Positions 3,854 through 41,772 of a DNA stretch of 64,000 bases are shown one piece after another. The notes beneath the pieces were generated by a model, which was not told where the DNA came from, made no database searches, and saw only the letters and a list, made by a program, of their open reading frames with translations. The stretch lies in assembly GCA_902601345.1 (NCBI GenBank), contig CACKMK010000002.1, forward strand, positions 43,571 through 107,570, given 5' to 3'. The stretch comes from an uncultured Candidatus Poseidoniales archaeon. Lineage in GTDB: Archaea; Thermoplasmatota; Poseidoniia; Poseidoniales; Thalassarchaeaceae. Every line of letters begins with the position of its first letter. Within the stretch, counting starts at the first letter, position 1. The position numbers were made by a program, and so were the translations under genes.

Positions 3854-3918
3854 TTTACAGTGGAAAAACACCCCAAAAACCCCCTATTTCCAGTGAACTG
3901 CTCCATTATTGACGAAAT

Positions 3919-3926: not shown

Positions 3927-3950
3927 GCCACCCATAACCCTGTGTTTCTT

Positions 3951-4523
3951 GCCGCTCCGGGGGAGTGGTGTGAGGGCGCTTCGGCGCGACTCGCGGGCCA
4001 CAAAAACCGAGCCCCGAAACCGGGGCGGTAAAACCGAAATCCGAAAGGAAATCGGGGAATGGCTGGAGCGTCTGTGGACGCAAAGGCCGCGGCGAATAAA
4101 TCGGACGAACTGGAGGTAACGAAAGGGAGAGCGAGATAGGAGCTGAAGAGATACACATGCGTAGGGTGAAGAGAATGAACCTGGGTCATGTAGGTGGGGA
4201 ACGAGGCAGAGATAACCGGACGCAAGGAAGGGGAAGGAAACCAAGGGAAACACCGGGCAACAAGGGCGGGGAGACCCGTGGAGAAGCCAGTATCGAGACG
4301 TGAAAGGAAAAGCGGAGACGAAGTACCAGAAGCGGATGCGGCGAGTGAAAGGGAGATCTATTACGAGTCGGAAAATGACAAAGGAAGAGCATGAAGTTCC
4401 GGAGTCGTCTACCCGGGGGAACCCGGGCCTTCGGGCCCGGGGGACACCCGGACCCTGCGGAGTTAACAGGGGGGGAAGCTCCCCCATGTGCTGAACCCCC
4501 TGTTGCTCCCACCTAATATCGGC
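3951..4523 (+). ncRNA. candidate large structured non-coding RNA, class unknown
   Basis: It lies in the 705-bp gap between convergent genes, which has only stacked low-complexity ORFs on both strands. Perfect hairpins are capped by UUCG (3976-3987, 4422-4441) and GAAA (4040-4049 inside 4034-4055). There is a 9-bp helix at 4465-4473/4496-4504. The 5' and 3' ends can pair (3951-3954 with 4520-4523, 3961-3965 with 4506-4510). The core is purine-rich on the + strand. Ends are approximate. Confidence 0.6.
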
Positions 4524-4558
4524 CCAGAAATTTCCTGAAGACTAGTGGAAACTACTGC

Positions 4559-7727: not shown

Positions 7728-7855
7728 TCTACCTGATATGGCCTTGACGTAATGTCATGAAGATTGCCTTCATTGAGGTGAATTTCGAGCAAGATGACGG
7801 TGAATGTTCTTGGACGGCCTCTTCGGAGTGGTTAGTGTTGTCGCGAGGGGAAGGC

Positions 7856-12686: not shown

Positions 12687-12719
12687 ATGGCGAATGGCAT
12701 CAAGTCTTCTGCGCTATCG

Positions 12720-14522: not shown

Positions 14523-14534
14523 ATGGAATCATTC

Positions 14535-16283: not shown

Positions 16284-16293
16284 TCAATCAACC

Positions 16294-16992
16294 TCATGCT
16301 ACAGCTGTGATATCCACGATGAATCCCATCTCGGGCATAACCTTCCATCCGATTCTCTCAGTCACTGGTCCCGCGGCTCGAAGGAATCGAGTGACGCTGA
16401 CGGTCCTGACAAGCTGTCCACCAACGACTGCGGTCATCATATCCAGCACGACCTCAGCGGAGTTCTTCATGTCCCTGAGGGTGTGGCTGTCCATCTCTTC
16501 GGGATCAATCGTCAATATCAGGGTACGACCCTCTGAGGTGAACTTCCGGAGAACCCTCAAAAGCTCCTTGCTCGACATATCATCTGGCATCAGCTCTGAG
16601 GCCCTGTCAATGATTACCACGTCTGCCTCCTTCGAGGCCGGTGACTCAAGTAGATTCAGCAGGGTTACTGGCTCTTCGGATGGTTCGGCAATGACTCCGA
16701 AGCTGGAAATCAGGTGGAATGATCCCTCGTCGATCCTCTTGTCCATGTAGTATCCGATGCTGGAAACCTGCTCAAGCCAGCCCCTCGTGGTTAGCTCGGT
16801 GGTGTATAGTGAGACTTTGACGTCGTTCGCTGTCATTCCGAATGACATTCGCTGTCCAATGATGCTCTTTCCGGAGCCAATGCCTCCGCAAACGAGCATC
16901 AGTGCCCTATTCGGGATGGCAGTCCCCATGCTCTGCCCCAGGCTGTCCTGGATTACCCCGAACTCGAAATTGTCGACGTTAGCTTGTGACAA
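16294..16992 (-). CDS. arlH: archaellum RecA/KaiC-like ATP-binding protein ArlH (FlaH)
   Basis: Walker A CGGIGSGKS in a 232-aa protein located between arlG and arlI. Confidence 0.85.
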   Translation of the reverse strand: MSQANVDNFEFGVIQDSLGQSMGTAIPNRALMLVCGGIGSGKSIIGQRMSFGMTANDVKVSLYTTELTTRGWLEQVSSIGYYMDKRIDEGSFHLISSFGVIAEPSEEPVTLLNLLESPASKEADVVIIDRASELMPDDMSSKELLRVLRKFTSEGRTLILTIDPEEMDSHTLRDMKNSAEVVLDMMTAVVGGQLVRTVSVTRFLRAAGPVTERIGWKVMPEMGFIVDITAVA

Positions 16993-17458
16993 GTCTTACT
17001 TCCTCCGAAACTGTGTATGCCCCAGCGTAACCCGTTGCAGTCGATACAACCGTTATTGTCATTATTACATCATTGGTGCCGGTGTAGCTGAGGGTATCGC
17101 TGGTATCGTCGACTGTGAACTGGACGATCTGCCCTTGTACCCAAGTCGTAGAACCGTCTGCGACTGACACGGTCATTGGGGTCCCCTCGATGTAGACTCC
17201 TATGGTTTCTAGGTCCAATTGCGTCTCGCCGGAATTCTGAATGTACAGTGTTGCCCTCTTCTCTGTGTCATCCCAACCTACATTGCTTGGGTCATTGACT
17301 AGGGATGCTCTGGTACGGACGTCCTCAGCGCCCTCCTTGCCCCTATCCTCGATTGCAGAGTCCATGTCCCCCCATGTGTCCAGGAGTACGCCTGAAACTA
17401 GGCCTGCTACTATCAACCCGGCAATGAGGAGAATGATCTCTGAGGGTCCGTTAGCCAT
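16979..17458 (-). CDS. arlG: archaellum protein ArlG (FlaG)-like
   Basis: Archaellin-like hydrophobic N-terminus (SEIILLIAGLIVAGLVSGVL) followed by a beta-rich domain. Its operon position matches flaG. Confidence 0.6.
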   Translation of the reverse strand: MANGPSEIILLIAGLIVAGLVSGVLLDTWGDMDSAIEDRGKEGAEDVRTRASLVNDPSNVGWDDTEKRATLYIQNSGETQLDLETIGVYIEGTPMTVSVADGSTTWVQGQIVQFTVDDTSDTLSYTGTNDVIMTITVVSTATGYAGAYTVSEEVRLVTS

Positions 17459-17469
17459 CTATTCTCACC

Positions 17470-18234
17470 TCATGAAATTGTTACCGAAACCGCGTCGTTG
17501 TAGTCGTATATGGCTAGGAATGCCCTGTCTGGGTCTGCGTCTACAGAGAATCCATGGCTTGCCAAGGATAAAGGGAATGGCTCTGTGGATATCTCCTCAC
17601 CGGGGAAGAGGTACAGGTTTCCCCCGGTATAGTGGTCTGTGAACTGGAATGGTATGCCCTGTTGAATAGGGGAGGTGTCCGAGAGCGTAATCACCACGTG
17701 AGACAATTCAACCGTCTCTGAGCCTGTGTTGCTGATGGATATGGTATTCTGGTCCTCGATCGCTGTGATTGTGTAGGTGGCTGTTCCATCGGAGCCATCG
17801 GAGCCGCAGTCTATCGTCACGACCTCGGCAACGGCGTATCCGTTTCCTGGTACAAGGGTGGCACCGTTGTATCCATCAACCTCACCATCGCCATTAGCAT
17901 CGAGGATTTCGATAGTTGCCCCAGCGCCTGAGGAGCTGCTGACTAGGTCGCATGTTGTCCCTGAGATGTAGTCGCTGCCCCCGGAGTTTACTCCACCCGT
18001 CCAAGAAAGGGTGGAGACTGGCCCCGTTGACTCCTGCTTGTCAGTGACGCTCACTATCACGACCTCAGGGTCGGGTAGCTCGTAATCCGTGTTCTTGATC
18101 GACTCGTTGACGCTGTCGACCAGTGTGACGGTGGCCATTCCGAAGATCATTATGAAGACGGTGCCGACGACCATCGCAGCTACGCTAGAACCAGCCAATA
18201 CCCATCCCCCTATGGAGTCCCCTGGGCCCTCCAA
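17470..18234 (-). CDS. arlF: archaellum protein ArlF (FlaF)-like, enlarged (254 aa)
   Basis: N-terminal TM (VLAGSSVAAMVVGTVFIMIFGMATV) plus a beta-rich domain, in the operon position of flaF. It contains a DANGDGEVDG motif. Confidence 0.55.
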   Translation of the reverse strand: MEGPGDSIGGWVLAGSSVAAMVVGTVFIMIFGMATVTLVDSVNESIKNTDYELPDPEVVIVSVTDKQESTGPVSTLSWTGGVNSGGSDYISGTTCDLVSSSSGAGATIEILDANGDGEVDGYNGATLVPGNGYAVAEVVTIDCGSDGSDGTATYTITAIEDQNTISISNTGSETVELSHVVITLSDTSPIQQGIPFQFTDHYTGGNLYLFPGEEISTEPFPLSLASHGFSVDADPDRAFLAIYDYNDAVSVTIS

Positions 18235-19028
18235 GCCTCGATCATCGCTGCGAAGGTCAGGAGCGTCCTGTTGTCAACCGCTGGTGCTCCCTCTGACTCT
18301 GCCCCGGCCTCTGCCAGCGCGGCGATTGAGCTCAGCGCCTTCTCCTCTGCCGCGGTGATCACTCCCGACTTGGAGGCGGCCTTTAGGAATCCCAGCGTGT
18401 CTGCCCCGCTCATGTTGTCGAGCAGAAGGGCTACTATCTTGGTGGGGTCAACTGACGGCCCGTGCATCAAGGCGTCTGCCTCCCCGCTCTTCAGGAAGGG
18501 GTTGACTGCCAAGGACTGGGCCTCGTAGAGGTCTAGGAGGCCCGGGCCTCCGGCCTTTCCACCGTGGGATAGAGGCCCTTCGACCTCGGACGCGGGAGAG
18601 TCTGCGGGTCGGCTAGTGACCTCTCCGTCATCGCCCACGGTGTGGATCACGTCCTGGGAAGCGCCTGCGGAGGCGCTAGCCGCAGATACCGAATCGGCTG
18701 CTATCTTCGCTGTCTGCTGGGCGGTCATCTTGATGTTGGCCTCCATCAGGTCCATTGCCGTCTCCAGCCTCTCGAACCTGTCCTTGACCATGTCCACCAG
18801 CTCCGGGATCTTGTCCTGCCCCTGGCTCGCCTGAGGGTCGCCGAGAACCCCGACCCTGGTCCCGGAGGGGGCGAAAAGCCACGCCTCTAGGTCCGTCGGC
18901 CTGAACTCGGTTGGGATGTCCACGTGCTCGACGCTTAGCCTGGCTACCTTGTCCAGCCTGGATGACATCCCGGGGTCGGCATCGGAGGAGCCACTAGAGC
19001 CAGACCTGAATTTGTCTAGTAATCCCAT
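18210..19028 (-). CDS. archaellum accessory protein, ArlC/D/E (FlaC/D/E)-like
   Basis: Soluble 272-aa acidic protein between the archaellins and arlF, where euryarchaeal flaC/D/E sit. The call rests on position and composition, not on a motif I can name. Confidence 0.45.
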   Translation of the reverse strand: MGLLDKFRSGSSGSSDADPGMSSRLDKVARLSVEHVDIPTEFRPTDLEAWLFAPSGTRVGVLGDPQASQGQDKIPELVDMVKDRFERLETAMDLMEANIKMTAQQTAKIAADSVSAASASAGASQDVIHTVGDDGEVTSRPADSPASEVEGPLSHGGKAGGPGLLDLYEAQSLAVNPFLKSGEADALMHGPSVDPTKIVALLLDNMSGADTLGFLKAASKSGVITAAEEKALSSIAALAEAGAESEGAPAVDNRTLLTFAAMIEAWRAQGTP

Positions 19029-19078
19029 TCCAACACCTCATGATCCCACCTCGCAAGGCACCTCTAACCCTAAAGGTC

Positions 19079-19723
19079 TCACATCATCGAGGAGCCCAAA
19101 GTCAGGGAGTGTACTGTAAACTCCGTTAGGGTCTCTCCACCGCCGTCTACGACTATGCGCATGTTCAGTGTCTCACCTTGGGTTGCAGTGGTGTCGCAAC
19201 CTGGGTTGACATCATCTGTGTCCACATCACCGTCACTGTCAACGTCCGAGTTTCCTAGGGTAACCGTGGTGTAGTAGGTGTTTCCGGCCGACAGCTCGGT
19301 AGTGCCGGCTATTGGAGTCTCGGTGATTATGCTGGATGCTGGGAGGGTTCCGTCGTCGAACCCGAGACCCAGTCCGGTGTGAGCGCTGAGATCGCACGTG
19401 ATATAGTAGGAGACGTCACCCGGGTAGATGCCGGTTGAACCGGACGATACCCTCCATACGACGTCGAACGTAGCCACGTGGCTTCCTGCTCCTATGTCGT
19501 CAGCGATGGTATTCACAATCAAGTCCGTGAGCGCGACCTTACCGGATATCTGCTGTCTGGTGTCGCTGCTGGTCTGCTCTGCGTTCTGCTGTAGCTCTTC
19601 GGCGGTCTTGATGATGATCGTCGAAGCAACTGCGGCCACTAGGATCAGGGCGATGAAGACGATCATCGCACCGATACCGATTGAGCCCGAGTCCTCTTTG
19701 TCCCTTGGAATTCTCTCGTTCAT
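19079..19723 (-). CDS. arlB: archaellin (ArlB/FlaB), second copy
   Basis: Class III signal peptide followed by SIGIGAMIVFIALILVAAVASTIIIKTAEELQQNAEQTSSDTR. The start is placed at ATG 19723 (GGGAGG lies 7 nt upstream). The ORF track starts at 19738. Confidence 0.9.
   Translation of the reverse strand: MNERIPRDKEDSGSIGIGAMIVFIALILVAAVASTIIIKTAEELQQNAEQTSSDTRQQISGKVALTDLIVNTIADDIGAGSHVATFDVVWRVSSGSTGIYPGDVSYYITCDLSAHTGLGLGFDDGTLPASSIITETPIAGTTELSAGNTYYTTVTLGNSDVDSDGDVDTDDVNPGCDTTATQGETLNMRIVVDGGGETLTEFTVHSLTLGSSMM
19560..19681. repeat. 122-bp segment identical to 20205-20326 (archaellin N-terminal domain)
   Basis: Direct comparison of the two stretches (gtgtcgctgctggtctgctctgcgttctgctgtagc...atcgcaccgataccgat) shows no mismatch, while the flanking sequence diverges. 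Confidence 0.9.
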
Positions 19724-19738
19724 GCTATCGCCTCCCAT

Positions 19739-20374
19739 CTAAACCACCGATGCCCCCGAGGTTAGTGAGTCTATCTTCAGTTCTGTAACGGTCGTGCCAC
19801 CATCGGTTACGATGATCTTGAGGAGCATCGTCTCGCCGATTCCGCCTAGGGCGTCGCAGTCCCCTCCGTTGGTTATTATGTCGAAGCGGAATACGGTTCC
19901 AGCGTCCATCTCAAGGGACCCGAAGTCGGAGCCGTCGAGGTTGTCCGCGTTCTGTGACTCTGTTCCGTCGATGGTGCCACCTTCAGCATCGGTTCCCCCT
20001 AGTGCGGAGGTGCCGAGGTTACCTGCTACGAGCCCGTAGCTTGCACTGTCACCGCATGTGAGGAGCCAGTTGATGTTCTGGGCAACCAGGTTCTGGGCTC
20101 CAGCGGCGACCTTGGCCGTGAAGACCATGCTCTCGACGTCGGTCGCGCTCGATGTGTTCACCAGCGCCTGTACGATGTTGATCTTCCCGGAAATCTCCTT
20201 CCTCGTGTCGCTGCTGGTCTGCTCTGCGTTCTGCTGTAGCTCTTCGGCGGTCTTGATGATGATCGTCGAAGCAACTGCGGCCACTAGGATCAGGGCGATG
20301 AAGACGATCATCGCACCGATACCGATGGAGCCTTCCTCTCGGTTTCTTTCTACTGTCTGGTATTCTTCGCTCAT
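19739..20374 (-). CDS. arlB: archaellin (ArlB/FlaB), first copy
   Basis: Its hydrophobic N-terminal domain is identical to the downstream paralog, and the C-terminal beta domain is divergent. GGTGA lies 8 nt upstream of the ATG. Confidence 0.9.
   Translation of the reverse strand: MSEEYQTVERNREEGSIGIGAMIVFIALILVAAVASTIIIKTAEELQQNAEQTSSDTRKEISGKINIVQALVNTSSATDVESMVFTAKVAAGAQNLVAQNINWLLTCGDSASYGLVAGNLGTSALGGTDAEGGTIDGTESQNADNLDGSDFGSLEMDAGTVFRFDIITNGGDCDALGGIGETMLLKIIVTDGGTTVTELKIDSLTSGASVV
20205..20326. repeat. 122-bp segment identical to 19560-19681 (archaellin N-terminal domain)
   Basis: See the partner copy at 19560-19681. Confidence 0.9.
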
Positions 20375-20410
20375 TGCGTGTTCACCCGTGCCCCCCTGTG
20401 AATGCTAATC

Positions 20411-20419
20411 ATTTATGAT
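20411..20419 (-). promoter_or_regulatory. TATA-like element (minus strand ATCATAAAT) upstream of the first archaellin
   Basis: A/T-rich box about 40 nt upstream of ATG 20374, in the 88-bp gap after the 347-aa gene. Confidence 0.35.
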
Positions 20420-20435
20420 ATTACTGGAAAATGTG

Positions 20436-20448
20436 CTGGATAATCCAG
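20436..20448. promoter_or_regulatory. perfect 6-1-6 palindrome CTGGAT-A-ATCCAG just upstream of the archaellin TATA-like box
   Basis: Read directly from the sequence. It lies between the stop of the 347-aa gene (20463) and the putative archaellin promoter. Confidence 0.3.
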
Positions 20449-20462
20449 TTCTGAGCGGTAAA

Positions 20463-21506
20463 TTAGCTACCGATTCCTACTGCTTCTCGCAGGTTCAGTA
20501 CCTCGATGGGAACGTGAACGACATCCCCTGGTCCAAGGTTCTCCACGAGTGGGAGCCTCATCGTCTCGAATCCCTCTGGCATCCATGGATCCAACAGGAG
20601 ACCCTGCATGATGTTCGGAGTCCTGTTTTCTACCCTGGTCTGGACATTCAGGCTACCGTACTCGACGTCATATCCGGTGGTGATGTTCAGGCTGCTTCCA
20701 AGGAGTGCTGTGGATGGGAAGGATCCGGATGGCCTGATCTCGATCCCGATCTCGATGAAGCCATCTGGGGGTATCTCGGGAATCTCGCACATCTTCGGAG
20801 TGGCAGACCACCCGTACGGTATTGGCGGGGCAAGCCTCATTGTGGAGATGTTGTTCTCGCCGGTGTTCTCTAGTGTAATTACCATCAGGGCGTGGTCCTT
20901 GCCCTCTGGCCATGTCGTCCCTATAGAAAGGAAGAAGCTGTTCACTAGGAAGGGGCTGGCAGCCTCGTTGACAGCGACTGGGCCGAGTGCGCTGATTGCG
21001 TCCTCGAACGCCTTTGCCGCGGACGAGAGGTCGGAGTCGAGTGCCTCCTTACCCTGGTTGACCAGCGTGAGTGCGATGTCCTCTATGTCGCTGAGCTCAC
21101 CCATCTCGTTGAGGTGCCTTCCAAGGGTGTTCAGTGACCTCTCGAGTCCGTCTTTGCCCATCGATGCGACTGCGCCCTCTACGCAATCTGCTGCTGCTCC
21201 CCAGTTCCCCTCCCTGAGGTGCTGCAGGCCTAGCATTGTCAGGTCCCAGGCGTTGCGATCGCCTTCTGACATCTGCTCGAGCTCCTCGAGGGATCGCTCT
21301 AGCGATGATAGCGCCCTGTAGAGGTCCATGATCTGTCCTTCTGCCTCTTCGACCTCCTTCGATAGGTCTCTCAGCATCTTTCTGGCGCCTATAGGCCTGT
21401 TTGCCCAGATTGCGAATTGGATGTTCTCGGCCTCTTCCTCGATGTAGTCGATCCGCTTGAGAGTGGCCTCGGCCCCTCCCGTTGCGGGTGCCTTCGTCCG
21501 TGCCAT
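20463..21506 (-). CDS. hypothetical protein: N-terminal coiled-coil/helical half plus C-terminal CARDB-like beta-sandwich, no signal peptide
   Basis: 347-aa ORF. A heptad-like region (EVEEAEGQIMDLYRALSSLERSLEELEQ) is followed by VITLENTGENNISTMRL-type strands. Its start lies 1 nt after the stop of the 1731-aa gene (TGA G ATG), with GGAGGGAGG inside the upstream gene's last codons. Confidence 0.7.
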   Translation of the reverse strand: MARTKAPATGGAEATLKRIDYIEEEAENIQFAIWANRPIGARKMLRDLSKEVEEAEGQIMDLYRALSSLERSLEELEQMSEGDRNAWDLTMLGLQHLREGNWGAAADCVEGAVASMGKDGLERSLNTLGRHLNEMGELSDIEDIALTLVNQGKEALDSDLSSAAKAFEDAISALGPVAVNEAASPFLVNSFFLSIGTTWPEGKDHALMVITLENTGENNISTMRLAPPIPYGWSATPKMCEIPEIPPDGFIEIGIEIRPSGSFPSTALLGSSLNITTGYDVEYGSLNVQTRVENRTPNIMQGLLLDPWMPEGFETMRLPLVENLGPGDVVHVPIEVLNLREAVGIGS

Positions 21507-21507
21507 C

Positions 21508-24500
21508 TCAGTTCCTCCCTCCTGGCTTCTGACCTGCCCTTCCGAGGATCTTCTTGATTCTGATAGCTCGGAGCTCTATATCAGCGAGTTCGCTGTAAAG
21601 CCTGTCGTAAGAGCTGTCCAGGAATTTCAGGATGATGTGCACTAGGATGGGCGAGGCGATCATGAATCCGATTATGGATATCAACGACGATGCCCCCAGA
21701 TCTATGGCGAGGGATGGTGAGATTAGTACGAATGGAAGGAAGGCGTAGGGAGAGCAGGAGATGATGGCGCGGAGCTCGTTCCTAGTGTTCTGCTGTTCCT
21801 TGTCGTGATCCTCCAACAGCGCCATCGTTCCGATTCTGGCCTTCTTCCTGTCGTCATGGATCGCCTGGAGCTCGCTGGAGGATAGCCATGCTACAAGCCC
21901 TGCGAACAAGATGGAGGCTAGAGCGCAAAGAAGTGATAGGATCGTGGAGGCGCCGGTTAGCGAGAGGGCCCCGAATGCCATTGCTGCCACGTACGAGGAC
22001 GCATGCAGGCGGCTCTCTTGCTCTTCCAGTCCCTGTCTGATGAGCGATACCGCCAAGAGGAGTAGGAGTGCTGCGATTAGAAGTGCGGACGGGAGTTGCA
22101 GACCGGATAGTTCGACGGCTGGGGTGGACCATGAGTCAATGGACAGGTCCTCCGTCCTGACGTCATTTTCTACGACGTTGCCGAAGATTCCGCCCATCTG
22201 CATTATGATGTCCGGATAGGTGATGGATGCGGAGCAAGTCAGTGTCTCTGAGGACTTGTACCATGGGATTGGGTTTAGTTCCACGGCCCAGGAAGCAGTG
22301 AAGTTCCCGTTTGCCTCAAGAGCTGGTATCGGGTACGATGCGAACATGTTCGTCACGTCTGCGTAAGGCGTGGGAGTGCAGTCGAGGTTCAGTTGGGACT
22401 GTGTTGGCATTACTGCGTATCCTGCGTTAATTACGGTAACGTCGATCCAAGTGCTCTCCCCCTCTACGCCCTCCCCCCTGAATGTGATGCTGTTGACGAG
22501 GGGATCCGTCGATTCTGTCATCCTGAGTCTGACGACTAGATCCGTCGAGTACTCCGTTGTCTTGGGCTCCTCTGGGTGTCTTAGTTGCAGGTAGATGTTC
22601 CATCCGTCTCCCGCTGCAACCCCGTCCAGCTGCTTCTCGGGGATAATTACCTGGAGTACGATTGTGCCCCCGTGAGCGGAGTCTGGGCTCCCTCCCTCAT
22701 AGGGAGTGGTGGCGTCGAGTTCCCAATCCGAGTTGCATGTCTCTTCCGTCGCGTCCGTGGCGGCGATACCGAATCCATCTATGTCTGCTAGTTCGCACTT
22801 CGCAGTACCTGCATCGGTGTCGTGATCGATGTATAGCCACCAATGCACCTTGGGGTAGCTGGCTGAGTCCACGAGGCGTTCTGGGGGGTCTGCTGATGCA
22901 TCGTAGGGGTCCATATCCCCGTTCAATGCCAGTGTGTAGGACCTCGGGTCGAATGAGCTGTCTCGGTAGTTTATGTCCACCCATGGTATCTCTATCTGCC
23001 TGCAATTCGGGTCGTCGTTGTTTTCGCACTGGTACTGGCCGGCGGCATCGGCGCTCAAGGTGTAAGTGTCATCGGTCTGGGCTCTGACGACGGTGATTGG
23101 GAAGGAGTTCTGCTGGGTCTCCATCGCGGCGTCCACTGGTACTCTCTTCAGGATGAATGTTCCTTGCTCGCCCTTGATCGTGTCATTATGTGTCATTGCG
23201 AATTCGAAGCTAATTGAGCTGGTCTGCCCAACCTGCAGGTACAGGTTTGTAGAGCCTAGCGAGTTTCGGACTTCGAACCTATCTGGCTTCGAATCGTCCT
23301 GTTCCGTGTCTATGGTTTCCCACTGTATTGTGAGGTTGATCGGTGCGTTGCCCTTGTTCTCCATTTCGAATTCGATTGACCTGTCCACCCCTGGGACTAT
23401 TGCTATCCTCTGTGGGGACTTGGTCAATTCCACATCGAAGACGGGGAGGACCTTGATTTTGAGCGTCGAAGTCCCAGCTGGGACGCCCCCACCCATTGCG
23501 ACCCTCTCTGACAATGGAACGGGCTGGGCCACTCCATCGACCATTTTTGTTGCAGGCCATGTGGGGAACGGGTCGGTGATGTTTACCGCTCTCATGGTTA
23601 GGTTGTGGATGACGTCGGCTACGAGAATCTGGTCTCCGTCCCTGAGAGGGGGCAGTGTGATGCTGAGGAGTACGGTACGAGACTCATACTGGTCTAGTGA
23701 GAATCCGGATTCGTTGACCTGGTAAGACCAGTTGGTCATTCCCTCTGGGAAGGTCACAGTCAAGTTCAGTGTCTCCATGAGGTTGCCGTCGTTCCGTAAA
23801 ACCACCTCTAGGTCGAGGGTGTTCCCCGGGGCTACCTGCATTTCGGTGGGAGCTATGAATAGTATTGCATGGTCAGGAGCAACCTGAACCTTCCATTCGC
23901 TTGTGGACATTAACTGGCCGTCGTGAGACGCATTCAGGAAGAAAGTCTGGTTTTCATCTGCTCTCGAGTCCTCTCCAGCAGTGGAGTAAATCCTGACGAT
24001 TCCCTGCGACCCTGCCGGGACCAACAGTGTGGATTCGGTCACACAGGGCTGCATCTCCTCAGAGAAGCAGACCCTGATCTTGTCGACATCGAGATTGTCC
24101 AGGGACAGGTTGTATGTGACGTTCTTGTTTCCTGTGTTATTGAGCAGGGCAATCAGGGTCTTCTGGCCGACTCTGCTGTCCAATGAGGGGGAAGGGGTGA
24201 TTACCGCCGTGGAAGTAGGGGGGTAGAGTTCTGCCGAGATGACTTCGGTGAGGGTGAAGAGGGCAGGGGCATATGCAAGCAGTTCTCCAGTTTCCGTGGA
24301 GTTGGCGTACACCCAGACCTGATGTGTCTCATCCGCTCTGGCTGAGGCCGGGGGAGTGGCGGTGACCGTTATTGGCCGCTGATTCTGGGTTGATGAACCG
24401 TCATTGTACAGATTCGTCATGGAGGGTACGAGGTTCGCCGCGGTGGACCCCAGGGTGATGGTCCATCCAGGCTTAGGGACGTATCCGATGGTGAAGTTTG

Positions 24501-26703
24501 CTGGATCGTTCCCTGTGTTCTCCAAAACCACCTCAGAGGATATGGGGGTCCCAGGGTCCCCATTGGCTGCTCCTGAGGAAGTCAGCTCTGCCGACCAGAG
24601 TTCTGCTATTGACATGGAAACCGTGGCTGTGGCATTACGGGAAATTGCCCCGGAGAAAGCAGCCCAAGATGATGTCGCCATGAACGAGAAGTTGAGGTGA
24701 CCCGCCGATGGGTATTGGAAGTCTGGGGTGGGGCCGAAGCTCAGTCCCACCATTCCGTATCCGGTTTCTCCTGGCAGGAGTTCCAAGGTCGAGGCGGAGG
24801 ATGAGGAAGAGGTCTGGACCGTAGCCGTCCAACGCGAATTCTCGATGAGGCTGGAGCCAGCCGGGGTATCCTGAAGAAAGACCTTCCCATTGCTACAGGT
24901 GGATTGCGTCCAAGGGCTACCCGATGCAGCAGTGGTTGGCGCTAGGGAGGTACACGGCATGGCGCTGAGGGATACTTGGGCCAAGGTGTTGTTTGAGCCG
25001 AGATTGTGAACTATCGTCACTTCGAAGCCGACGAACCTGTCGGTATTGCCCCCGATGATGTCATTGACTGAAATATCATCGATTTCACTGGTCACGGAGA
25101 TGTCCAACTCAACAATGCTGTCTATCATTAGCGTCGTCTGGTTGACTGCTGGGACTCCCCCCTGTAGGGGGATTGCTTGGACCATCAGATCCACTCTTTC
25201 TATGGAGGAGACCTTCCAGGACGGGTTCAGTGGCATCTCTAGCTCCGGGGTGGTGATTGTTACGGGAAGTGTCCTGGTCTCATTTGGCAGCAGTACGTCG
25301 GTGATTGTGACAGGTGAGTCTATGATCCAGTACGGCACCGATTCCGTCGCTCCGACATCTATCTGATACTGGGCTGGTGCGGTACCGGTGTTCATCAGGG
25401 TGTATTGTAGGGTCCTGGGGGAACCGGGGGTGATGTTCGCGAAGTTTTCTCCCATCGAATGGCTGTGGTTTTGGAAAATCTCCGCGCTGAATGTACCTCC
25501 TGCCATGACCATTGTGCTGGCTGAGAGGACGTAACCCGCCGTGTCGCTTTGAATTGTTAGGGTCACAATTACGGCGTCTCCATTGGCGGCATCCGCGGGA
25601 ACATCGACCGGGATCTGAATTGCATGGGTTTGCTGGGCGCCTACATTGAGAAGGTTGGTGGAGGAATGTATCTGATCCGTGATATTTACCCAGTAGTTGG
25701 CGGGGTCGGAGTTGTTGCTCTGTGTCACGGTGAAGTTGTCCTCAACGGTTCCAGAGTTCTGTAGTATGAAGTTCAGAGTTGCCTGCGAACCTGGGTCGAC
25801 GTTCCGGTTGTTGGCTGGTATTAGCGATGCCCTTAGGGCTACGAAGCTCACTATTCTGGAGTCGATTGTGACCGAGCCCTGTGTAGAGCCCGACACAAGT
25901 ATGCTACCACTAAGGGTGTAATCTCCTTCAAGTCCGGAGCCATCGAACGATATTGTGATATTAGCAGGGGTTGGAGGATCTGCAAGGCTTCCGGGAAGCA
26001 ATTCTTCTGTACTCGAGGAGAGGGGGACGCTCGAACCACCCAGCGACGGAGTTAGTGTTAGCTGGGCTGTGACGTCGACTGGTTGATTGCCCGTGTTGAC
26101 CACGGTGATTGCTCCTTCCCAGAGTGCTCTCGCTAGGGAAGACCCATCGGATGGTAGGGAGTCTGCGATGTCTGAGGCAGACTCCACCTCAGCGACGCTT
26201 ACACCGGATAGAGACATCTGGTTATTGCTCGAGTCCGAGTCGGAGGATGATGATGCCGGGATCCATGACGCAGTTATCTCATATCCTGTTCCTGAGAGGG
26301 AAGAGGCGTCCCAGTACATCACGCTGTTTACCTGTCCTCCAGGAGTGATGGTGGCAGTCCTGTTGTCAACGACGACCCCGTTAACCTTGAGCGTTACATT
26401 GCCTTCGGCAGTAGACCCGCCCTGATTGGTAGTCCCGACAACAATCACGTGATCAACAGGAGCCAGTGTGGGGGTTCCTCCAACCGTAGCGGAGGGTGTG
26501 GTGACGTCTAGATCGGTTACTACCACATCTGGGCCCATTTGACGAGTCGAGCTTGGCATTGGGTTCTCTTCGTCTGTAGCAACGGGAATACCAGCGAGCA
26601 GGGGGGAGAGGAAAAGTAGAGCGACTAGAATCGTGGCCTTGCTAGCCGTTCTAGTTGTCCTATGTAGGTTTCTTGAGGATTCTTGACTGGAATCTTTCAG
26701 CAT
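21508..26703 (-). CDS. giant cell-surface protein: signal peptide, at least 8 CARDB/Ig-like beta-sandwich repeats, C-terminal multi-pass membrane domain
   Basis: The 1731-aa ORF has an N-terminal signal/TM (ATILVALLFLSPLLAGIPVA). A recurring strand motif appears as VVNTGNQPVDV, ILQNSGTVEDNF, LMNTGTAPAQY, LENTGNDPANF, LNNTGNKNVTY, LRNDGNLMETL, MENKGNAPINL and VINAGYAVMPT. It carries many N-x-S/T sequons. The last ~270 aa hold about 5 hydrophobic helices. GAGGAGGGGAG lies upstream of ATG 26703. Confidence 0.85.
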   Translation of the reverse strand: MLKDSSQESSRNLHRTTRTASKATILVALLFLSPLLAGIPVATDEENPMPSSTRQMGPDVVVTDLDVTTPSATVGGTPTLAPVDHVIVVGTTNQGGSTAEGNVTLKVNGVVVDNRTATITPGGQVNSVMYWDASSLSGTGYEITASWIPASSSSDSDSSNNQMSLSGVSVAEVESASDIADSLPSDGSSLARALWEGAITVVNTGNQPVDVTAQLTLTPSLGGSSVPLSSSTEELLPGSLADPPTPANITISFDGSGLEGDYTLSGSILVSGSTQGSVTIDSRIVSFVALRASLIPANNRNVDPGSQATLNFILQNSGTVEDNFTVTQSNNSDPANYWVNITDQIHSSTNLLNVGAQQTHAIQIPVDVPADAANGDAVIVTLTIQSDTAGYVLSASTMVMAGGTFSAEIFQNHSHSMGENFANITPGSPRTLQYTLMNTGTAPAQYQIDVGATESVPYWIIDSPVTITDVLLPNETRTLPVTITTPELEMPLNPSWKVSSIERVDLMVQAIPLQGGVPAVNQTTLMIDSIVELDISVTSEIDDISVNDIIGGNTDRFVGFEVTIVHNLGSNNTLAQVSLSAMPCTSLAPTTAASGSPWTQSTCSNGKVFLQDTPAGSSLIENSRWTATVQTSSSSSASTLELLPGETGYGMVGLSFGPTPDFQYPSAGHLNFSFMATSSWAAFSGAISRNATATVSMSIAELWSAELTSSGAANGDPGTPISSEVVLENTGNDPANFTIGYVPKPGWTITLGSTAANLVPSMTNLYNDGSSTQNQRPITVTATPPASARADETHQVWVYANSTETGELLAYAPALFTLTEVISAELYPPTSTAVITPSPSLDSRVGQKTLIALLNNTGNKNVTYNLSLDNLDVDKIRVCFSEEMQPCVTESTLLVPAGSQGIVRIYSTAGEDSRADENQTFFLNASHDGQLMSTSEWKVQVAPDHAILFIAPTEMQVAPGNTLDLEVVLRNDGNLMETLNLTVTFPEGMTNWSYQVNESGFSLDQYESRTVLLSITLPPLRDGDQILVADVIHNLTMRAVNITDPFPTWPATKMVDGVAQPVPLSERVAMGGGVPAGTSTLKIKVLPVFDVELTKSPQRIAIVPGVDRSIEFEMENKGNAPINLTIQWETIDTEQDDSKPDRFEVRNSLGSTNLYLQVGQTSSISFEFAMTHNDTIKGEQGTFILKRVPVDAAMETQQNSFPITVVRAQTDDTYTLSADAAGQYQCENNDDPNCRQIEIPWVDINYRDSSFDPRSYTLALNGDMDPYDASADPPERLVDSASYPKVHWWLYIDHDTDAGTAKCELADIDGFGIAATDATEETCNSDWELDATTPYEGGSPDSAHGGTIVLQVIIPEKQLDGVAAGDGWNIYLQLRHPEEPKTTEYSTDLVVRLRMTESTDPLVNSITFRGEGVEGESTWIDVTVINAGYAVMPTQSQLNLDCTPTPYADVTNMFASYPIPALEANGNFTASWAVELNPIPWYKSSETLTCSASITYPDIIMQMGGIFGNVVENDVRTEDLSIDSWSTPAVELSGLQLPSALLIAALLLLLAVSLIRQGLEEQESRLHASSYVAAMAFGALSLTGASTILSLLCALASILFAGLVAWLSSSELQAIHDDRKKARIGTMALLEDHDKEQQNTRNELRAIISCSPYAFLPFVLISPSLAIDLGASSLISIIGFMIASPILVHIILKFLDSSYDRLYSELADIELRAIRIKKILGRAGQKPGGRN

Positions 26704-28836: not shown

Positions 28837-30006
28837 GTGCCGATGCCAATCAGAGCTCCTGAAATCGATGACGAGGGTTTGCTTGCTAGGTATCCCTTTC
28901 TGCCACAGGGAAGGTCATTCATTCGTAAGATGTTGGAAGAGAACGGAATAACTGTTGAGGATCTAATTGAAGCCCCTTGGCTCGAGGATGTGAGAGTTAG
29001 GGGCAGGTTAAGGCTGGTGGATTCAGTTTTACAGCAGGAGGATGTGGCATCCTCTTCCACAATTGACCTTTCAACAGACGTTGGGAGGATGACTGAGACA
29101 CTGTCCTTCCTTCATGCAATGCTAGTAGTCTGTGCATCATTCGATGAGAGGCTGCTTTCCAGATGGATTGAGGGCGAGTCTAGCAGAGCGGATAAGTTAC
29201 TGGGTATGGACTCCAAGAACTTCAATTTGCTTTCCTCTTCTTTTCTTTCCGATATTGTAGTGGAAAGTAATAGCGAGGGGTCTGAAATATACTGGATTCC
29301 AATGGTAGACTTCATCGAGCTTAGCCCAAAAATTTCCGGCAAATACTGGAGATTGGTAAATAGGCCTTTGAGAGACGGTTGGGTTTGTCTGGATTCTGGA
29401 GCTGGAGAGACAGGGAGAGAGAGGGCTTCTCGACTGATAAAGGAGAGAGTTAGAGAGAGTCTGAGGGTTAGTTGTGAAGATAGAATTTCCAGGATGGATG
29501 ATGAGTTTGCAGCTAAGTTCGCAGACCCGGTAGATAGGATTACTGGACTGCTTTCTGAGAGAGTCAAGGAGGAGATGCCTATGACGGCAGCAGTCAGGGA
29601 TGACTGGCCTCCGTGTTTTGAATCGGCTGTTTCTGAGTTGAACCAGGGGGTAAATGTAAATCATGTTGGAAGGGTCTTCCTTGCCGCTTTCTCAAGATCG
29701 ATAGGACTTCAGCAGGAGCAAACCTGCAACTTCTTTTCCAATGCCCCTGACTATGACGCTGACACTACATCATACCAAGTGGGTCAGATTTACGAAAGAG
29801 AGTATACCCCTCATGGATGCTCTTCTCTAAAAACGAACGCCAGATGCCCCGTGCAAATAGGAGAGGACCCCCTCTGTGATCAAGAATGGTTGACTCATCC
29901 TCTGAAGTATATCAGAGCAAAGCAGAGGAGGAGGTATGGCTCGGGCAATGCCGGATCTGACGGATATGCCAATGACTCAGATAGCGATTCTGCCAATTCC
30001 TCATAA
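28837..30006 (+). CDS. priL: DNA primase large subunit PriL
   Basis: N-terminal YPFLPQG motif and a C-terminal Fe-S domain with PPCF, C and HGCSSLKTNARCP cysteines. Confidence 0.8.
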   Translation: MPMPIRAPEIDDEGLLARYPFLPQGRSFIRKMLEENGITVEDLIEAPWLEDVRVRGRLRLVDSVLQQEDVASSSTIDLSTDVGRMTETLSFLHAMLVVCASFDERLLSRWIEGESSRADKLLGMDSKNFNLLSSSFLSDIVVESNSEGSEIYWIPMVDFIELSPKISGKYWRLVNRPLRDGWVCLDSGAGETGRERASRLIKERVRESLRVSCEDRISRMDDEFAAKFADPVDRITGLLSERVKEEMPMTAAVRDDWPPCFESAVSELNQGVNVNHVGRVFLAAFSRSIGLQQEQTCNFFSNAPDYDADTTSYQVGQIYEREYTPHGCSSLKTNARCPVQIGEDPLCDQEWLTHPLKYIRAKQRRRYGSGNAGSDGYANDSDSDSANSS

Positions 30007-34483: not shown

Positions 34484-35092
34484 ATGGGAACCAACTCAGA
34501 AGAGGATAAGAGCGGACCGAAAATCGACATCAGAACACTACCGGAGTCCGTATCCCTCCTCTGGGAGTCAATGCTACGCAAAAATCCAAACTGGGACTTA
34601 TCTGAGTGGCTAGACGAAAGAGCCAATGAAGAGTTGGAACTTCTGGAGTCGCACCTCGGCAGGGAGAAGCTCAGGTACGAGCAAAGACTCCATAGAATAG
34701 AGAATCTCTCCAAACAGATGAGCAGGAGGAGGGAGAGCGCTGGGACATCTCCATTGCCCGATCCAAACCAGCGGAATCTCTTCGATGTATACGGTCCTTC
34801 GGAGGAGGTCCCCCCTGCCGAAGGAAAGGAAATCGATGGAGTGCCATTAGTTGACCTCGGATCGCTTTCGGCTGATGATGACCTCCTGCTGGCTTACATT
34901 AGTCAGAAGATTCTGATTGTAATAGAGGAGGCAAATGAGAAGGGAGAGGGTTTGCATTTCGACAATATAATTCGGTTGATGGAGTCTCCTGGGATAACCT
35001 CAGAGGACATTGATGAGTCGATATCTTGGCTTCTTCAGAAGAACGAGATTATTGAGATAGAAAGAGACGTTTTTGTCATCAGCTCAAAATAA
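34484..35092 (+). CDS. hypothetical protein with a probable C-terminal winged-helix domain
   Basis: 202-aa acidic ORF. The C-terminal ~70 aa (LLLAYISQKILIVIEEANEKGEGLHFDNIIRLMESPGITSEDIDESISWLLQKNEIIEIERDVFVI) has a wHTH-like pattern. Confidence 0.5.
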   Translation: MGTNSEEDKSGPKIDIRTLPESVSLLWESMLRKNPNWDLSEWLDERANEELELLESHLGREKLRYEQRLHRIENLSKQMSRRRESAGTSPLPDPNQRNLFDVYGPSEEVPPAEGKEIDGVPLVDLGSLSADDDLLLAYISQKILIVIEEANEKGEGLHFDNIIRLMESPGITSEDIDESISWLLQKNEIIEIERDVFVISSK

Positions 35093-35149
35093 TCGTGGTG
35101 GTAATCAATACAACCATTCAAACACGAAGAGCGAATCGGTGGGTTACCT

Positions 35150-37105
35150 ATGACGAGCGAAACTTCTGGGTGGTATGCAAGGCTGGATCATGAGTGTCCA
35201 GAAAGGACCCGACAGATCGGAATTTGGCTTGATTCATGGCTTGAGGCAACCAAGAAAGGGCTCCCTATAGCAGCCACTCTCCCAAACAATTGGCCAACCC
35301 TTCCTGCAGGTCTGCTCAGCAACCCAGGAACGGTTTTAGATCACCTGATTGCTAGGTTTGATGCCCAAAGCGATGGGCGTTCCCCGAGGGGAGTTTACGC
35401 ACCTCCAGCGCGATTTGTAGATGCGATATTGTACGACGAGCTGCGGCATGGAAGGGGTAAGAAGAAAGAGCCCCCCGCTACTCTCTCTCTAGCTGCTCTT
35501 CCACCTAGTTTCAGAGGGTTTGCAAAACAGATTAACGAGAACATCGATGAGAATGGGGACTCCGAAAGCGACAGTCTGGAGATGGATAATAGAACGATGT
35601 CGGGAATTCCGATTCCGTTTGCAGACCCTTGTGTAGGGGGCGGTCTCTTCGTTGAGAGAATATTGAGGATACACTCTGAAAGAATTTCAGGAAACACACC
35701 GAATGAGAGGAGAGAGGATACCCTGCGACTCTTGGAGGGACTACAGTTGGTGGACAGTTCCGAGGTGGCAGTGACTTCGGCGAGGAAGAGAATCGTGATT
35801 GTTCTTGCCAGGCTAGATCTTGTAGATCTGGACGGAGAGGGGAACGAAGGAAAGATTGGTCTCAGTGAGGCAGAGATGATTATCGAGAGTAACGTTCGTT
35901 GTGTTGATCCTCTACTTGGCGAGTGGCCTTGGAACGAAGGCCCCATGCTTCTAGTTTCACGCCCTCCGTGGCTCAGAATCAAGGATAGGTTCAGAGGACA
36001 TCCAGATGGGAGTGCTCTTAGAAAGAGGCTATCCTGTCAGCTAAGGGAATTCAAGGAGTCAGATGGAAGAACCAGATTCTCAGCAATCAAAGGGAATGTG
36101 AACCTGTACAGACTTTACATCGAGAGATCAATGCAGTTGTGTCAGAAAGGAGGAAGGGCTAGGCTAGTAGTGCCCAGTTCGGTTCTGAGAGAAAAAAGCA
36201 GTCTGCCGCTCAGAAAATTGCTTGTTGAGTCAAACCAATGGGATTCAGTCTGGTCGTTTCCAGAAGACCACAAATTGCTCTTTGGGGGTTCACAAGGAGT
36301 ATCTGTAATCGGTGTTACCGTTGGAGAGGAAACCGATGTTCTAACCAGCTTCGGACCTCTGCAGACCAATGACCTCTCATCGGGCAATGGACTTGTGTCC
36401 GACGCTCCATTCTTTGAATTAGAAAGAGGGCCATGGTCCTCATGGACGGATGCATCATATGCCGTTCCAAAGATGCCCAGATCGTCGATTGAAAGGACTA
36501 GGACCTTGTCAGCAATAGGAAAACTGGCAGATAAGCCTCGTTTGGTCGAAGACGGAACGGGCTTGAATCCGAGTACTAGAGTCATCAAAGTCAGGGTAGG
36601 GGAGGTTGAGAGGTCTTCCTGGGAGGACGAGATATGCGAATGGAGGGAGGGTCTTCTTCCATTTGTAAGGGCATCTCACATCCATTTCGAGGATGGTAGA
36701 GGGGTGATTAGGCACCCCGCTTTTGATGCCAACAATGTAGGCGAACTAGAGGCTAGTAATTCTGGATGGTCAGGACCCAAAAATATGGCCGTCCAGTCTA
36801 GAATCGCCTGTCAGGCGGTGGTGAATCCTAACTCAGAGAGGAGACTGGTGTGGGCGGTTGTTCCAGAGGGCTGCGTTATCGGGAACTCGGTTAGCTTCCT
36901 CGATCTGCCTCCCGAGGTTACAGAGCGGCTAAAGGATAGGTTCGGAACCATTGAAGAGGGTTTGAGAGTCCTTGCTAGCCAACTGAATTCAGAAGATCTG
37001 GATCTGTGGTCCAAAGCTTGGGCGGCAAATAACAATGTGAATAACTATGAAATCGAGACTCTACCGTTCGAAATAGAGGGTGGAGAGTTTGGATTGCCTG
37101 CCTAG
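35150..37105 (+). CDS. Eco57I/TaqI-type (gamma-class) N6-adenine methyltransferase-like protein with degenerate catalytic motif
   Basis: GVYAPPARFV stands where the conserved TP-containing block usually reads (Y/F)(Y/F)TP. Motif I is FADPCVGGGLFV. Motif IV is VSRPPW (35957-35971) instead of (N/D/S)PP(Y/F/W). NLYRLYIERSMQLCQKGGRARLVVPSSVL covers motifs V-VIII. The C-terminal region looks like a target-recognition domain. Confidence 0.65.
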   Translation: MTSETSGWYARLDHECPERTRQIGIWLDSWLEATKKGLPIAATLPNNWPTLPAGLLSNPGTVLDHLIARFDAQSDGRSPRGVYAPPARFVDAILYDELRHGRGKKKEPPATLSLAALPPSFRGFAKQINENIDENGDSESDSLEMDNRTMSGIPIPFADPCVGGGLFVERILRIHSERISGNTPNERREDTLRLLEGLQLVDSSEVAVTSARKRIVIVLARLDLVDLDGEGNEGKIGLSEAEMIIESNVRCVDPLLGEWPWNEGPMLLVSRPPWLRIKDRFRGHPDGSALRKRLSCQLREFKESDGRTRFSAIKGNVNLYRLYIERSMQLCQKGGRARLVVPSSVLREKSSLPLRKLLVESNQWDSVWSFPEDHKLLFGGSQGVSVIGVTVGEETDVLTSFGPLQTNDLSSGNGLVSDAPFFELERGPWSSWTDASYAVPKMPRSSIERTRTLSAIGKLADKPRLVEDGTGLNPSTRVIKVRVGEVERSSWEDEICEWREGLLPFVRASHIHFEDGRGVIRHPAFDANNVGELEASNSGWSGPKNMAVQSRIACQAVVNPNSERRLVWAVVPEGCVIGNSVSFLDLPPEVTERLKDRFGTIEEGLRVLASQLNSEDLDLWSKAWAANNNVNNYEIETLPFEIEGGEFGLPA

Positions 37106-37248: not shown

Positions 37249-37827
37249 ATGGGAATCAATCCAAAGATCGGAATTACTGGTCTCCCACGCTCGGGAAAGT
37301 CAGCTGTACTTCAGAAAGTTGTAGACATGATCTCCCAAGAGGGTAGTGGCTTCAGGAGGACCAAGGGTCCTAGTCCCCCTGAGCACATCATTGGGGGCAT
37401 GAGGTGCGAGCCAGTAATTGAGAACGGAGAGAGGGTTGGATATGCTTGCGTAAACATTCTTACCGGTGAGAAAGGGGTAATGGCCCATAGAGAAATAGAC
37501 TCTAGGAATCGCATACTTGGTTTCGGCATAGACCCAAGTGAGATTGATAGGGTTGGGGTTCCCGCGATAATTGACAGTATAGGAAACTGCGAGATCTTAG
37601 TGATTGACGAGGTCGGGAAGTTCACTGTTGAAAGCGAGGGGTTCGTCAATTCGGTTAGGTTGGCACTACAGCATGACCTACCTACTCTGCTGACTCTTCA
37701 CAAGAAAAGTCGTCACCCTCTATTGCAGGATATCCGGAGGAGGGATGACGCTCGTATACTGGAGGTGACTCCAGTGAACAGGTCGCTGCTTCCATACAAG
37801 ATTCACAAGTTAATCCAAGAGTTGTGA
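37249..37827 (+). CDS. THEP1-like nucleoside-triphosphatase (COG1618)
   Basis: Walker A GLPRSGKS, then GGMRCEPVIENGERVGY and Walker B VIDEVGKF, in a 192-aa protein as in archaeal THEP1/MJ1559. Confidence 0.7.
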   Translation: MGINPKIGITGLPRSGKSAVLQKVVDMISQEGSGFRRTKGPSPPEHIIGGMRCEPVIENGERVGYACVNILTGEKGVMAHREIDSRNRILGFGIDPSEIDRVGVPAIIDSIGNCEILVIDEVGKFTVESEGFVNSVRLALQHDLPTLLTLHKKSRHPLLQDIRRRDDARILEVTPVNRSLLPYKIHKLIQEL

Positions 37828-41698: not shown

Positions 41699-41772
41699 TG
41701 GAGCACGAGCCGGGATTTGCACCCGGGTCCATGGATCTGCAGTCCATTGCATAGCTGCTCTGCCACTCGTGC
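41699..41772 (-). tRNA. tRNA-Cys (anticodon GCA), CCA encoded
   Basis: The minus strand reads GCACGAG-UG-GCAG-AGCAGCU-AUGC-A-AUGGA-CUGCAGA-UCCAU-GGAC-CCGGG-UGCAAAU-CCCGG-CUCGUGC-U-CCA. It has a perfect 7-bp acceptor, a 5-bp anticodon stem and a 5-bp T stem. Discriminator U73 is typical for Cys. The D and T loops are non-canonical. Confidence 0.8.

Follow-up and report, generated by a model that had tools for sequence, protein, structure and literature searches.

The window analysed here, a 64,000-nucleotide stretch of contig CACKMK010000002.1 (assembly GCA_902601345.1), comes from a Thalassarchaeaceae (Marine Group IIb, MGIIb) archaeon, and the close homologs are labelled Candidatus Thalassarchaeaceae or Poseidoniales. 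It encodes a 651-residue homolog of the gamma-class N6-adenine DNA methyltransferases, in which the catalytic Asn of motif IV is replaced by an Arg (Arg271), giving RPPW in place of NPPW. Comparison of the orthologous sequences indicates that NPPW is the ancestral state, and that RPPW is a derived, clade-level state inside a canonical family. The original prediction left three options for this protein, namely an inactive fold re-used as a reader, an enzyme of changed chemistry or substrate, and an ordinary enzyme with a tolerated substitution; the evidence leans to the inactive reader. We propose, with confidence and doubt in equal parts, that the Arg-bearing (R-type) proteins are neofunctionalised, probably non-methylating DNA-binding derivatives of an orphan methyltransferase. 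The gene and the segments of its product are as follows.

35150..37105 (+), methyltransferase-like gene, 651 residues; gamma-class N6-adenine DNA methyltransferase homolog of the Poseidoniales xPPWLRIKD family, R-type
35150..35374 (+), N-terminal helical extension (residues 1-75) ahead of the motif X block, with helices 3-15, 19-36 and 59-74 predicted at a high predicted local distance difference test score (pLDDT)
35390..35407 (+), motif X-like block GVYAPP (residues 81-86), aligned with G(I/V)YYT(S/D/P) of Alw26I-type relatives
35618..35653 (+), motif I, the S-adenosylmethionine (AdoMet)-binding loop FADPCVGGGLFV (residues 157-168), aligned with FLEPCVGGGAF(L/V)
35741..35755 (+), motif II LQLVD, with the acidic residue D202 aligned to that of the canonical motif II
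35891..35914 (+), motif III NVRCVDPL, with D253 invariant in the alignment with canonical relatives
35957..35971 (+), motif IV SRPPW (residues 270-274), RPPW standing opposite NPPY of canonical relatives
36347..37069 (+), C-terminal target-recognition domain of the TaqI/CamA/Alw26I type (residues ~400-640), delimited by TIGR02987, PADLOC MTase_II and the CamA fold alignment

Both open reading frames of the original prediction, at 34484-35092 (202 residues) and 35150-37105 (651 residues), were recovered as described, and three motifs of the longer protein lie where they had been placed. The coordinates given for V-S-R-P-P-W were one codon short at the 5' end: the complete hexapeptide begins at 35954, and the codon of Arg271 is CGC at 35960-35962.

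Profile searches matched the protein to Pfam Eco57I (PF07669) with 30 bits against a cut-off of 25.3, covering only residues 307-374 in the part that follows motif IV, and Pfam gave no matches on the N- and C-terminal parts. The best NCBIfam match was TIGR02987, the Alw26I/Eco31I/Esp3I adenine methyltransferase family (E=2e-21), whose alignment reaches residues 534-640; with 76.2 bits against a cut-off of 353.5 the protein lies outside that family, as do the orthologs bearing Asn at position 271 (N-type, 83-89 bits). PADLOC reported the type II methyltransferase model MTase_II at 1e-17 over residues 303-640, together with weak matches to type II/IIG models. The AlphaFold2 model, built with 45 orthologs as input, has a pLDDT of 83.6 and a predicted TM-score (pTM) of 0.80, and matches CamA, M.BseCI, PglX/BrxX and M.TaqI over the full length, with E-values from 6e-17 to 1e-11. 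Sequence search against the PDB returned a marginal match to TaqI alone (E=0.15), in which TaqI residues 130-181 align to residues 307-358 and RPPW falls at the same relative place as NPPY 105-108.

The protein has the motif order X-I-II-III-IV-...-VIII plus a C-terminal recognition domain on a Rossmann-type fold, and the AdoMet-binding residues of motifs I, II and III are present; the core of motif I, FADPCVGGG, sits opposite FLEPCVGGG of canonical relatives. Motif IV departs from (D/N/S)-P-P-(Y/F/W) at its first, catalytic residue, whereas the PPW part fits. As the placements by profile, model and alignment agree, both the gamma-class reading and the position of Arg271 as the first residue of motif IV appear sound, which bears out the earlier view of an orphan gamma-class homolog with a non-canonical motif IV. 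One public annotation names an ortholog BREX-1 PglX, but the NCBIfam BREX models gave no match to the window protein and PADLOC PglX gave only 11 bits (E=0.012), which argues against membership in that family. The N-terminal extension contains many invariant Trp, Pro and Leu positions among the 45 orthologs, and is family-specific: the first ~60-80 residues of the canonical relatives, situated outside their TIGR02987 match, contain nothing equivalent. The conserved blocks of the C-terminal domain include RIxCQ, RRLxW, NS, LNS and NNNVNNYE.

Residue counts were taken from an alignment of 201 sequences, including 136 N-type, 58 R-type and 6 K-type (Lys-bearing) proteins. Position 271 is Asn in 136/136 N-type, Arg in 58/58 R-type and Lys in 6/6 K-type proteins, and is the sole column fixed differently between N-type and R-type; no second-site change co-varying with the Asn-to-Arg switch was found in this alignment. 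R-type orthologs with the fixed Arg extend down to 55% identity to the window protein. NPPW is the motif of every one of the 120 relatives found for the outgroup ortholog P0242, among them those of Poseidoniaceae (Marine Group IIa, MGIIa). In the set of 80 species loci nearest the window, whose metagenome-assembled genome (MAG) titles are of Poseidoniales type or unclassified archaeon, RPPW was counted 61 times, NPPW 18 times and KPPW four times, plus one KPPWV. The 18 NPPW loci form a clade with genomes labelled MGIIb-O1, at ~55% identity to the window protein. RPPW appears to be derived at the level of clades because these orthologs and all MGIIa relatives carry NPPW. Canonical close homologs had been named beforehand as a sign that the Arg is a strain-specific change; such homologs were indeed found, yet the fixation of Arg throughout the R-type shows that it is not strain-specific.

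Across the lineages, Arg271 is encoded by all six Arg codons (AGA, AGG, CGC, CGT, CGA and CGG), and so many synonymous changes with no replacement argue that the Arg itself is under selection. Moreover, the pairwise ratio of nonsynonymous to synonymous substitution rates (dN/dS) is 0.03-0.11 in the R, K and N clades alike, and 0.03-0.07 between the window protein and its close relatives. The sequences indicate that purifying selection acts on the protein as well as on the Arg, and such selection persisting after replacement of the catalytic residue is the pattern of a pseudo-methyltransferase. A strain-specific mutation or a pseudogene is ruled out by the presence of Arg across three deep clades, the six codons and dN/dS values of <=0.1. 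A third basic residue was seen at position 271 in P0265, a 149-residue metagenomic fragment that reads HPPWLRIKD, lacks an internal segment and departs from the other sequences beyond GHENG. Misassembly or a pseudogene may lie behind it, and its HPPW was not counted as evidence.

The history of the clades was taken from a bootstrapped neighbour-joining tree. Five Thalassarchaeaceae clades are recovered at 96-100% bootstrap, namely R1 (with the window), R2, R3, N(O1) and K, among which K groups with R1 at 89%. The clade N(O1) lies outside all R and K in 21% of the replicates and is nested among the R clades in 62%. A single clean origin of the Arg is not supported, as monophyly of all R-type sequences received 0% bootstrap. 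At minimum, the tree calls for a single replacement of Asn by a basic residue and a single exchange between Arg and Lys; more events or a reversal may have occurred. R1-type and R2-type copies (72% and 56% identity to the window protein) were also met on two contigs of one MAG (CAXEUQ01, ERR599032_concoct_73), for which a mixed bin is more likely than true paralogs.

The active site around position 271 is conserved to different degrees in the three types. D159 and G165 are 100% conserved, R-type included; D202 is found in 136/136 N-type and 56/58 R-type proteins, and D253 in 134/136 and 56/58, respectively. Y83 is retained in 57/58 R-type proteins (98%), and P272-P273-W274 in 100%. Compared to the N-type, the R-type more often lacks Gly at 163 (15% versus 1.5%) and Phe at 167 (31% versus 0%). 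Position 85 is Thr in 135/136 N-type proteins and Pro in 17/58 R-type proteins, including that of the window, where it gives rise to the block GVYAPP; in TaqI-type enzymes the equivalent Thr positions the catalytic Asn (T23 and N105 in TaqI; PMC3814359). In the K-type clade, GIGSIQ replaces the aromatic residue and TP, and the equivalent of Tyr30 of CamA, the TP block and the motif I Pro are all gone. Decay of the pocket is thus clear in the K-type, and in the R-type amounts to a mild relaxation only, in which the catalytic constraints at T85, G163 and F167 seem slightly relaxed.

When one genome per GTDB species was scanned, 337 species proved to encode a member of the family. In a search of 1.8 billion representative proteins, a sharp score break separated the full-length orthologs, which reach down to 49-52% identity and all share the signature xPPWLRIKD, from generic NPPY methyltransferases at 23-38% identity. 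The closest canonical relatives are Alw26I-type N6-methyladenine (m6A) methyltransferases with NPPY, at 23-25% identity to the window protein. The nearest two, P0290 and P0303, score 235-284 bits to TIGR02987 and so are also under its cut-off, and lie in complete type IIS cassettes with a 5-methylcytosine (m5C) methyltransferase (PF00145) and a RE_Alw26IDE endonuclease (PF09665). Compact three-gene cassettes of this type, comprising the m6A methyltransferase, the m5C methyltransferase and RE_Alw26IDE, occupy 297-4519 of locus L092 and 479-4698 of locus L094, and are likely the ancestral context of the Poseidoniales family.

By contrast, neither the Alw26I-type endonuclease nor the m5C methyltransferase has a tblastn homolog in the window or in 91 related loci (1.26 Mb), other endonuclease types having been checked solely via Pfam annotation of the neighbouring genes. 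As the nearest relatives are borne on cassettes whose partners are absent from the Poseidoniales loci, the sequences point to the family being an orphan, vertically inherited offshoot of the Alw26I/Eco31I/Esp3I-type methyltransferase stock. It is a lineage-wide orphan, encoded in the 337 species, with conserved synteny in the loci compared and no Alw26I-type endonuclease. The ancestral protein, as deduced from these comparisons, carries every feature of an active DNA adenine methyltransferase, NPPW included.

The window protein shares with the Alw26I/Eco31I/Esp3I methyltransferases (TIGR02987) the gamma-class motif order and the type of C-terminal recognition domain. It differs from them in having RPPW instead of NPPY, GVYAPP instead of GxYYTx and an extra N-terminal extension of 75 residues; its gene has no m5C methyltransferase or RE_Alw26IDE partner, and is a vertically inherited core gene rather than part of a mobile cassette. 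The top structural match is CamA of Clostridioides difficile (PDB 7LNI), with E=6e-17 over ~640 aligned columns. Both are lineage-wide orphans and single polypeptides with an N-terminal methyltransferase part and a C-terminal recognition domain, and both possess an aromatic cage for the flipped base. However, CamA is a demonstrated NPPY enzyme acting on CAAAAA, the identity is ~12%, and the position of its Asn165 is taken by Arg in the window protein. As a lineage-wide orphan, CamA may be regarded as the nearest functional analogue. M.TaqI (PDB 2IBS and others), the sole solved structure detected by sequence, matches in fold with E=1e-11 and a TM-score of 0.62-0.64 normalised to TaqI; it differs in having NPPY with the catalytic N105 positioned by T23, in belonging to a restriction-modification system and in being ~230 residues shorter.

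The nearest conceptual analogue might be a pseudo-methyltransferase such as METTL14 of the METTL3-METTL14 complex. There, too, the fold is under purifying selection, the first residue of (D/N)PP(Y/F/W) is replaced (EPPL), and binding of nucleic acid without catalysis is proposed. METTL14 is of the MT-A70 (beta-class-like) lineage, its cofactor pocket is degenerate, and it acts as the obligate partner of an active paralog. Compared to METTL14, the window protein has RPPW, a mostly intact cofactor pocket and no evident active paralog as partner.

These comparisons show that much of Thalassarchaeaceae has replaced the catalytic Asn by a basic residue, namely Arg in three clades and Lys in a fourth, and that selection has since held this residue in place. 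In m6A methyltransferases the motif IV Asp/Asn forms a hydrogen bond with the amino group of the target adenine, and RlmJ, EcoDam and EcoRV all lose activity when this Asp is mutated to Ala (PMC3814359); likewise, the N360A/W363A double mutant of M.PtoI is severely impaired (PMC10050889). A cationic guanidinium at position 271 is unable to accept a hydrogen bond or a proton from that amino group. Since the Arg is no acceptor, a few pocket positions are relaxed and the K-type sister clade is degraded, the R-type has probably lost efficient methylation of adenine N6. The fold, the target-recognition domain, the aromatic base cage (Y83 and W274) and most cofactor contacts are retained, and the R-type would most likely work as a sequence-specific DNA-binding protein, possibly still flipping a base and binding AdoMet. 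Both the loss of methyl transfer and the binding role are what we infer from sequence. Because the site is not free to drift, the Arg must have some role, and most likely it touches the flipped base, the backbone or the cofactor in a contact that is under selection. A more specific form of this proposal, which we hold somewhat more tentatively, is that the R-type is a prokaryotic pseudo-methyltransferase in which AdoMet binding and base flipping at a specific DNA site persist but methylation of that base does not, with Arg271 holding the base or the cofactor.

Several observations weigh against the loss of catalysis. The R-type keeps D159 and G165 (100%), D202 and D253 (97%), Y83 (98%) and PPW (100%), although a protein in no need of a cofactor or a flipped base should lose such residues, like METTL14. 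In the structure of CamA, Asn165 contacts N1 of the flipped adenine, the carbonyl of Pro166 reaches N6, and the base is stacked upon by Tyr30 and Tyr168 (PMC8187626); as the Asn side chain there donates to N1 and the Pro carbonyl takes N6, an Arg could, by analogy, imitate the donor. The activity of the N-type, too, is a prediction from sequence. In addition, according to a marine metaepigenome study, consistent methylation in archaeal MAGs was confined to the motif GATC, which the study did not connect with the present gene (PMC8919816). Our literature search found no enzyme assay or methylome data for members of the xPPWLRIKD family, and nothing on the family or on RPPW, KPPW, RPPY or KPPY as a methyltransferase motif.

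These points bear on the main alternative, that the R-type is a still-active orphan DNA adenine methyltransferase, in which Arg271 is tolerated or even beneficial, for example by forming a hydrogen bond to N1 while the carbonyl of Pro272 activates N6. Such an enzyme, which we consider rather unlikely, would account for the near-complete retention of the cofactor residues, aromatic cage and PPW, for dN/dS as low as in the N-type clades, and for the nesting of N(O1) among the R clades in 62% of the bootstraps, which is easily explained if Asn and Arg are interchangeable. It would also agree with the contacts of Asn165 and Pro166 in CamA. However, Asn and Arg are never mixed within clades (136/136 versus 58/58), and none of the ~75 canonical relatives recovered has a basic residue at this position. 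Moreover, D/N-to-A mutants of related enzymes are dead, and a cation beside the sulfonium methyl and the amino nucleophile is expected to be chemically unfavourable. T85 is lost in the subclade of the window, and in the sister clade that bears Lys the pocket for cofactor and base is visibly degraded.

A changed substrate or chemistry would make the R-type an AdoMet-dependent enzyme acting on another base, atom or molecule, with the Arg recognising a carbonyl, a phosphate or a modified base. The selection on the Arg (six codons and zero substitutions) beside an intact AdoMet site fits a repurposed rather than an abandoned site. Nevertheless, we judge this improbable, because nothing else in the protein changes with the switch: a new substrate normally reshapes more than one residue, whereas no other position co-varies, and conservation of the target-recognition domain and of the remaining pocket matches that in the N-type. 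The literature search also yielded no (R/K)PP(W/Y) methyltransferase as a precedent. Finally, the gene could be a defective copy, in decay or peculiar to one strain, or could belong as methyltransferase to a mobile defence system (restriction-modification, BREX or DISARM) with partners out of view. This reading has the BREX-1 PglX annotation of one ortholog and the weak PADLOC type II/IIG and PglX matches in its favour, but is scarcely credible given dN/dS of 0.03-0.11, an intact frame in 80 species, family-wide core synteny, the lack of endonuclease or m5C partners in 1.26 Mb of loci, and PglX models that give 11 bits or no match.

The genes next to the methyltransferase-like gene, and the TerB-like genes of six related N-type loci, are as follows.

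34484..35092 (+), acidic protein of 202 residues, composed of a long helix, an acidic disordered linker and a winged helix at the C-terminus; no more than a local neighbour
37249..37827 (+), NTPase_1, a THEP1-type P-loop NTPase (Pfam PF03266, E=6.6e-34); the invariant downstream neighbour
L086 6058-6917, L088 3019-3971, L089 4992-5887, L090 5046-5905, L091 5054-5939 and L087 5481-6842, TerB-like genes

The original prediction took the 202-residue gene for the only coupled-looking neighbour; the NTPase_1 gene, which invariably follows downstream, and the TerB-like genes, which ancestrally lie upstream, were overlooked. In 81/81 loci with downstream sequence, the NTPase_1 gene follows the methyltransferase-like gene in the same orientation after a gap of 119-280 bp (893 bp in a single locus). 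Its product is 64-95% identical across the loci, and it is also found in six of six distant N-type loci with rearranged flanks. A functional link between the NTPase and the methyltransferase-like protein is possible, and is not distinguishable from deep synteny; the R-type protein may act together with this NTPase. In the six N-type loci outside the Thalassarchaeaceae crown, TerB/DUF533-like genes stand immediately upstream of the methyltransferase gene, mostly as a tandem pair of ~140 residues each, with a single gene of 453 residues called in L087. The TerB-like genes, the methyltransferase gene and NTPase_1 form a module that persists despite the rearranged flanks. No TerB-like gene was found in the 80+ Thalassarchaeaceae-crown loci or in the 64-kb window.

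The 202-residue protein is acidic (isoelectric point, pI, 4.5) and has a C-terminal winged helix, as foreseen from its sequence. The predicted model contains a long helix (residues 39-86), a disordered acidic linker and a winged helix of ~65 C-terminal residues (134-199) with the topology H-beta-H-H-beta-beta. Every top Foldseek match is a winged-helix domain, with target-normalised TM-scores of up to 0.87 at weak E-values of 4e-3 to 0.1, and the leading matches are winged helices of protein interaction, namely the C-terminal domain of MCM and the Rpa2 domain of P. abyssi (25% identity, RMSD 1.5 Å). The winged-helix domain is very acidic (pI 4.2; 16 Asp and Glu versus 6 Lys and Arg), which renders a role in DNA binding doubtful. 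The protein gave no Pfam, NCBIfam or PADLOC family match. It is no diverged TerB either, as tblastn found no similarity in either direction and its true homologs in L086, L090 and L091 adjoin the isocitrate/isopropylmalate dehydrogenase (Iso_dh) gene.

The gene of this protein immediately precedes the methyltransferase-like gene in all Thalassarchaeaceae-crown loci, including those of N-type. In L086, L090 and L091, which are MGIIa-like loci, a homolog of 30-37% identity stands beside the Iso_dh gene, ~4-5.5 kb from the methyltransferase gene, with sugar-nucleotide genes and two TerB-like genes in between, and no homolog was found in the flanks of the three N-type loci L087-L089. The separation in the MGIIa-like loci makes the adjacency in the window look like the product of a deletion rather than an ancestral operon. 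With homologs separated or absent in these N-type loci, a conserved functional partnership is ruled out beyond Thalassarchaeaceae, and the coupling suggested earlier does not hold outside the crown. In the window, the 202-residue gene is located 4.5 kb downstream of the gene of the primase large subunit (28837-30006).

The wider locus is made up of housekeeping genes, which identifies it as core chromosome and not a defence island. The flanking genes encode PriL (primase large subunit), DUF373, NadC, phosphopantothenate synthetase, an isocitrate/isopropylmalate-type dehydrogenase, the THEP1-type NTPase, GcvH, RNase H, PolD DP2 and an archaellum/pilus-type operon, and the core synteny (PriL, NadC, GcvH and RNase H) is kept across the whole archaeal family. 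Precomputed Pfam annotation of the syntenic loci showed no endonuclease, helicase, BREX or DISARM partner within ~6 kb on either side, in agreement with the earlier reading. Together with the absence of Alw26I-type partners, the housekeeping neighbours rule out a defence-island context.

Elsewhere in the window, the large subunit of DNA polymerase D (DP2) is encoded at 7757-11689 (+), full length and with all three Pfam domains. The archaellum/pilus-type cluster extends over 11682-26703 (-), and includes a peptidase A24-like gene (11682-12686), a T2SSF-like gene (12720-14522) and a T2SSE-like ATPase gene (14535-16283). These genes are followed by a block of higher G+C content (0.52-0.59) and strongly negative AT skew, which ends in a protein of 1731 residues with Ig-like domains (21508-26703). 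An Rfam scan of the window gave a single match, a tRNA gene at 41702-41772 (-).

The uncultured archaea of Marine Group II rank with the most abundant archaea of the surface ocean, and their DNA modification and gene regulation are barely known. The family described here is a near-universal, unannotated core gene of the order. The occurrence of Asn, Arg and Lys at the catalytic position among sister clades provides a natural experiment that makes the question directly testable: it bears on whether one residue can convert a DNA methyltransferase into a non-catalytic reader, and on the role of an order-wide orphan methyltransferase in archaea. If the R-type should prove active, the (D/N/S)PP(Y/F/W) rule for annotating amino-methyltransferases would widen. 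If instead it is a pseudo-methyltransferase, it would represent a metabolite-sensitive DNA reader or regulator in very abundant planktonic archaea.

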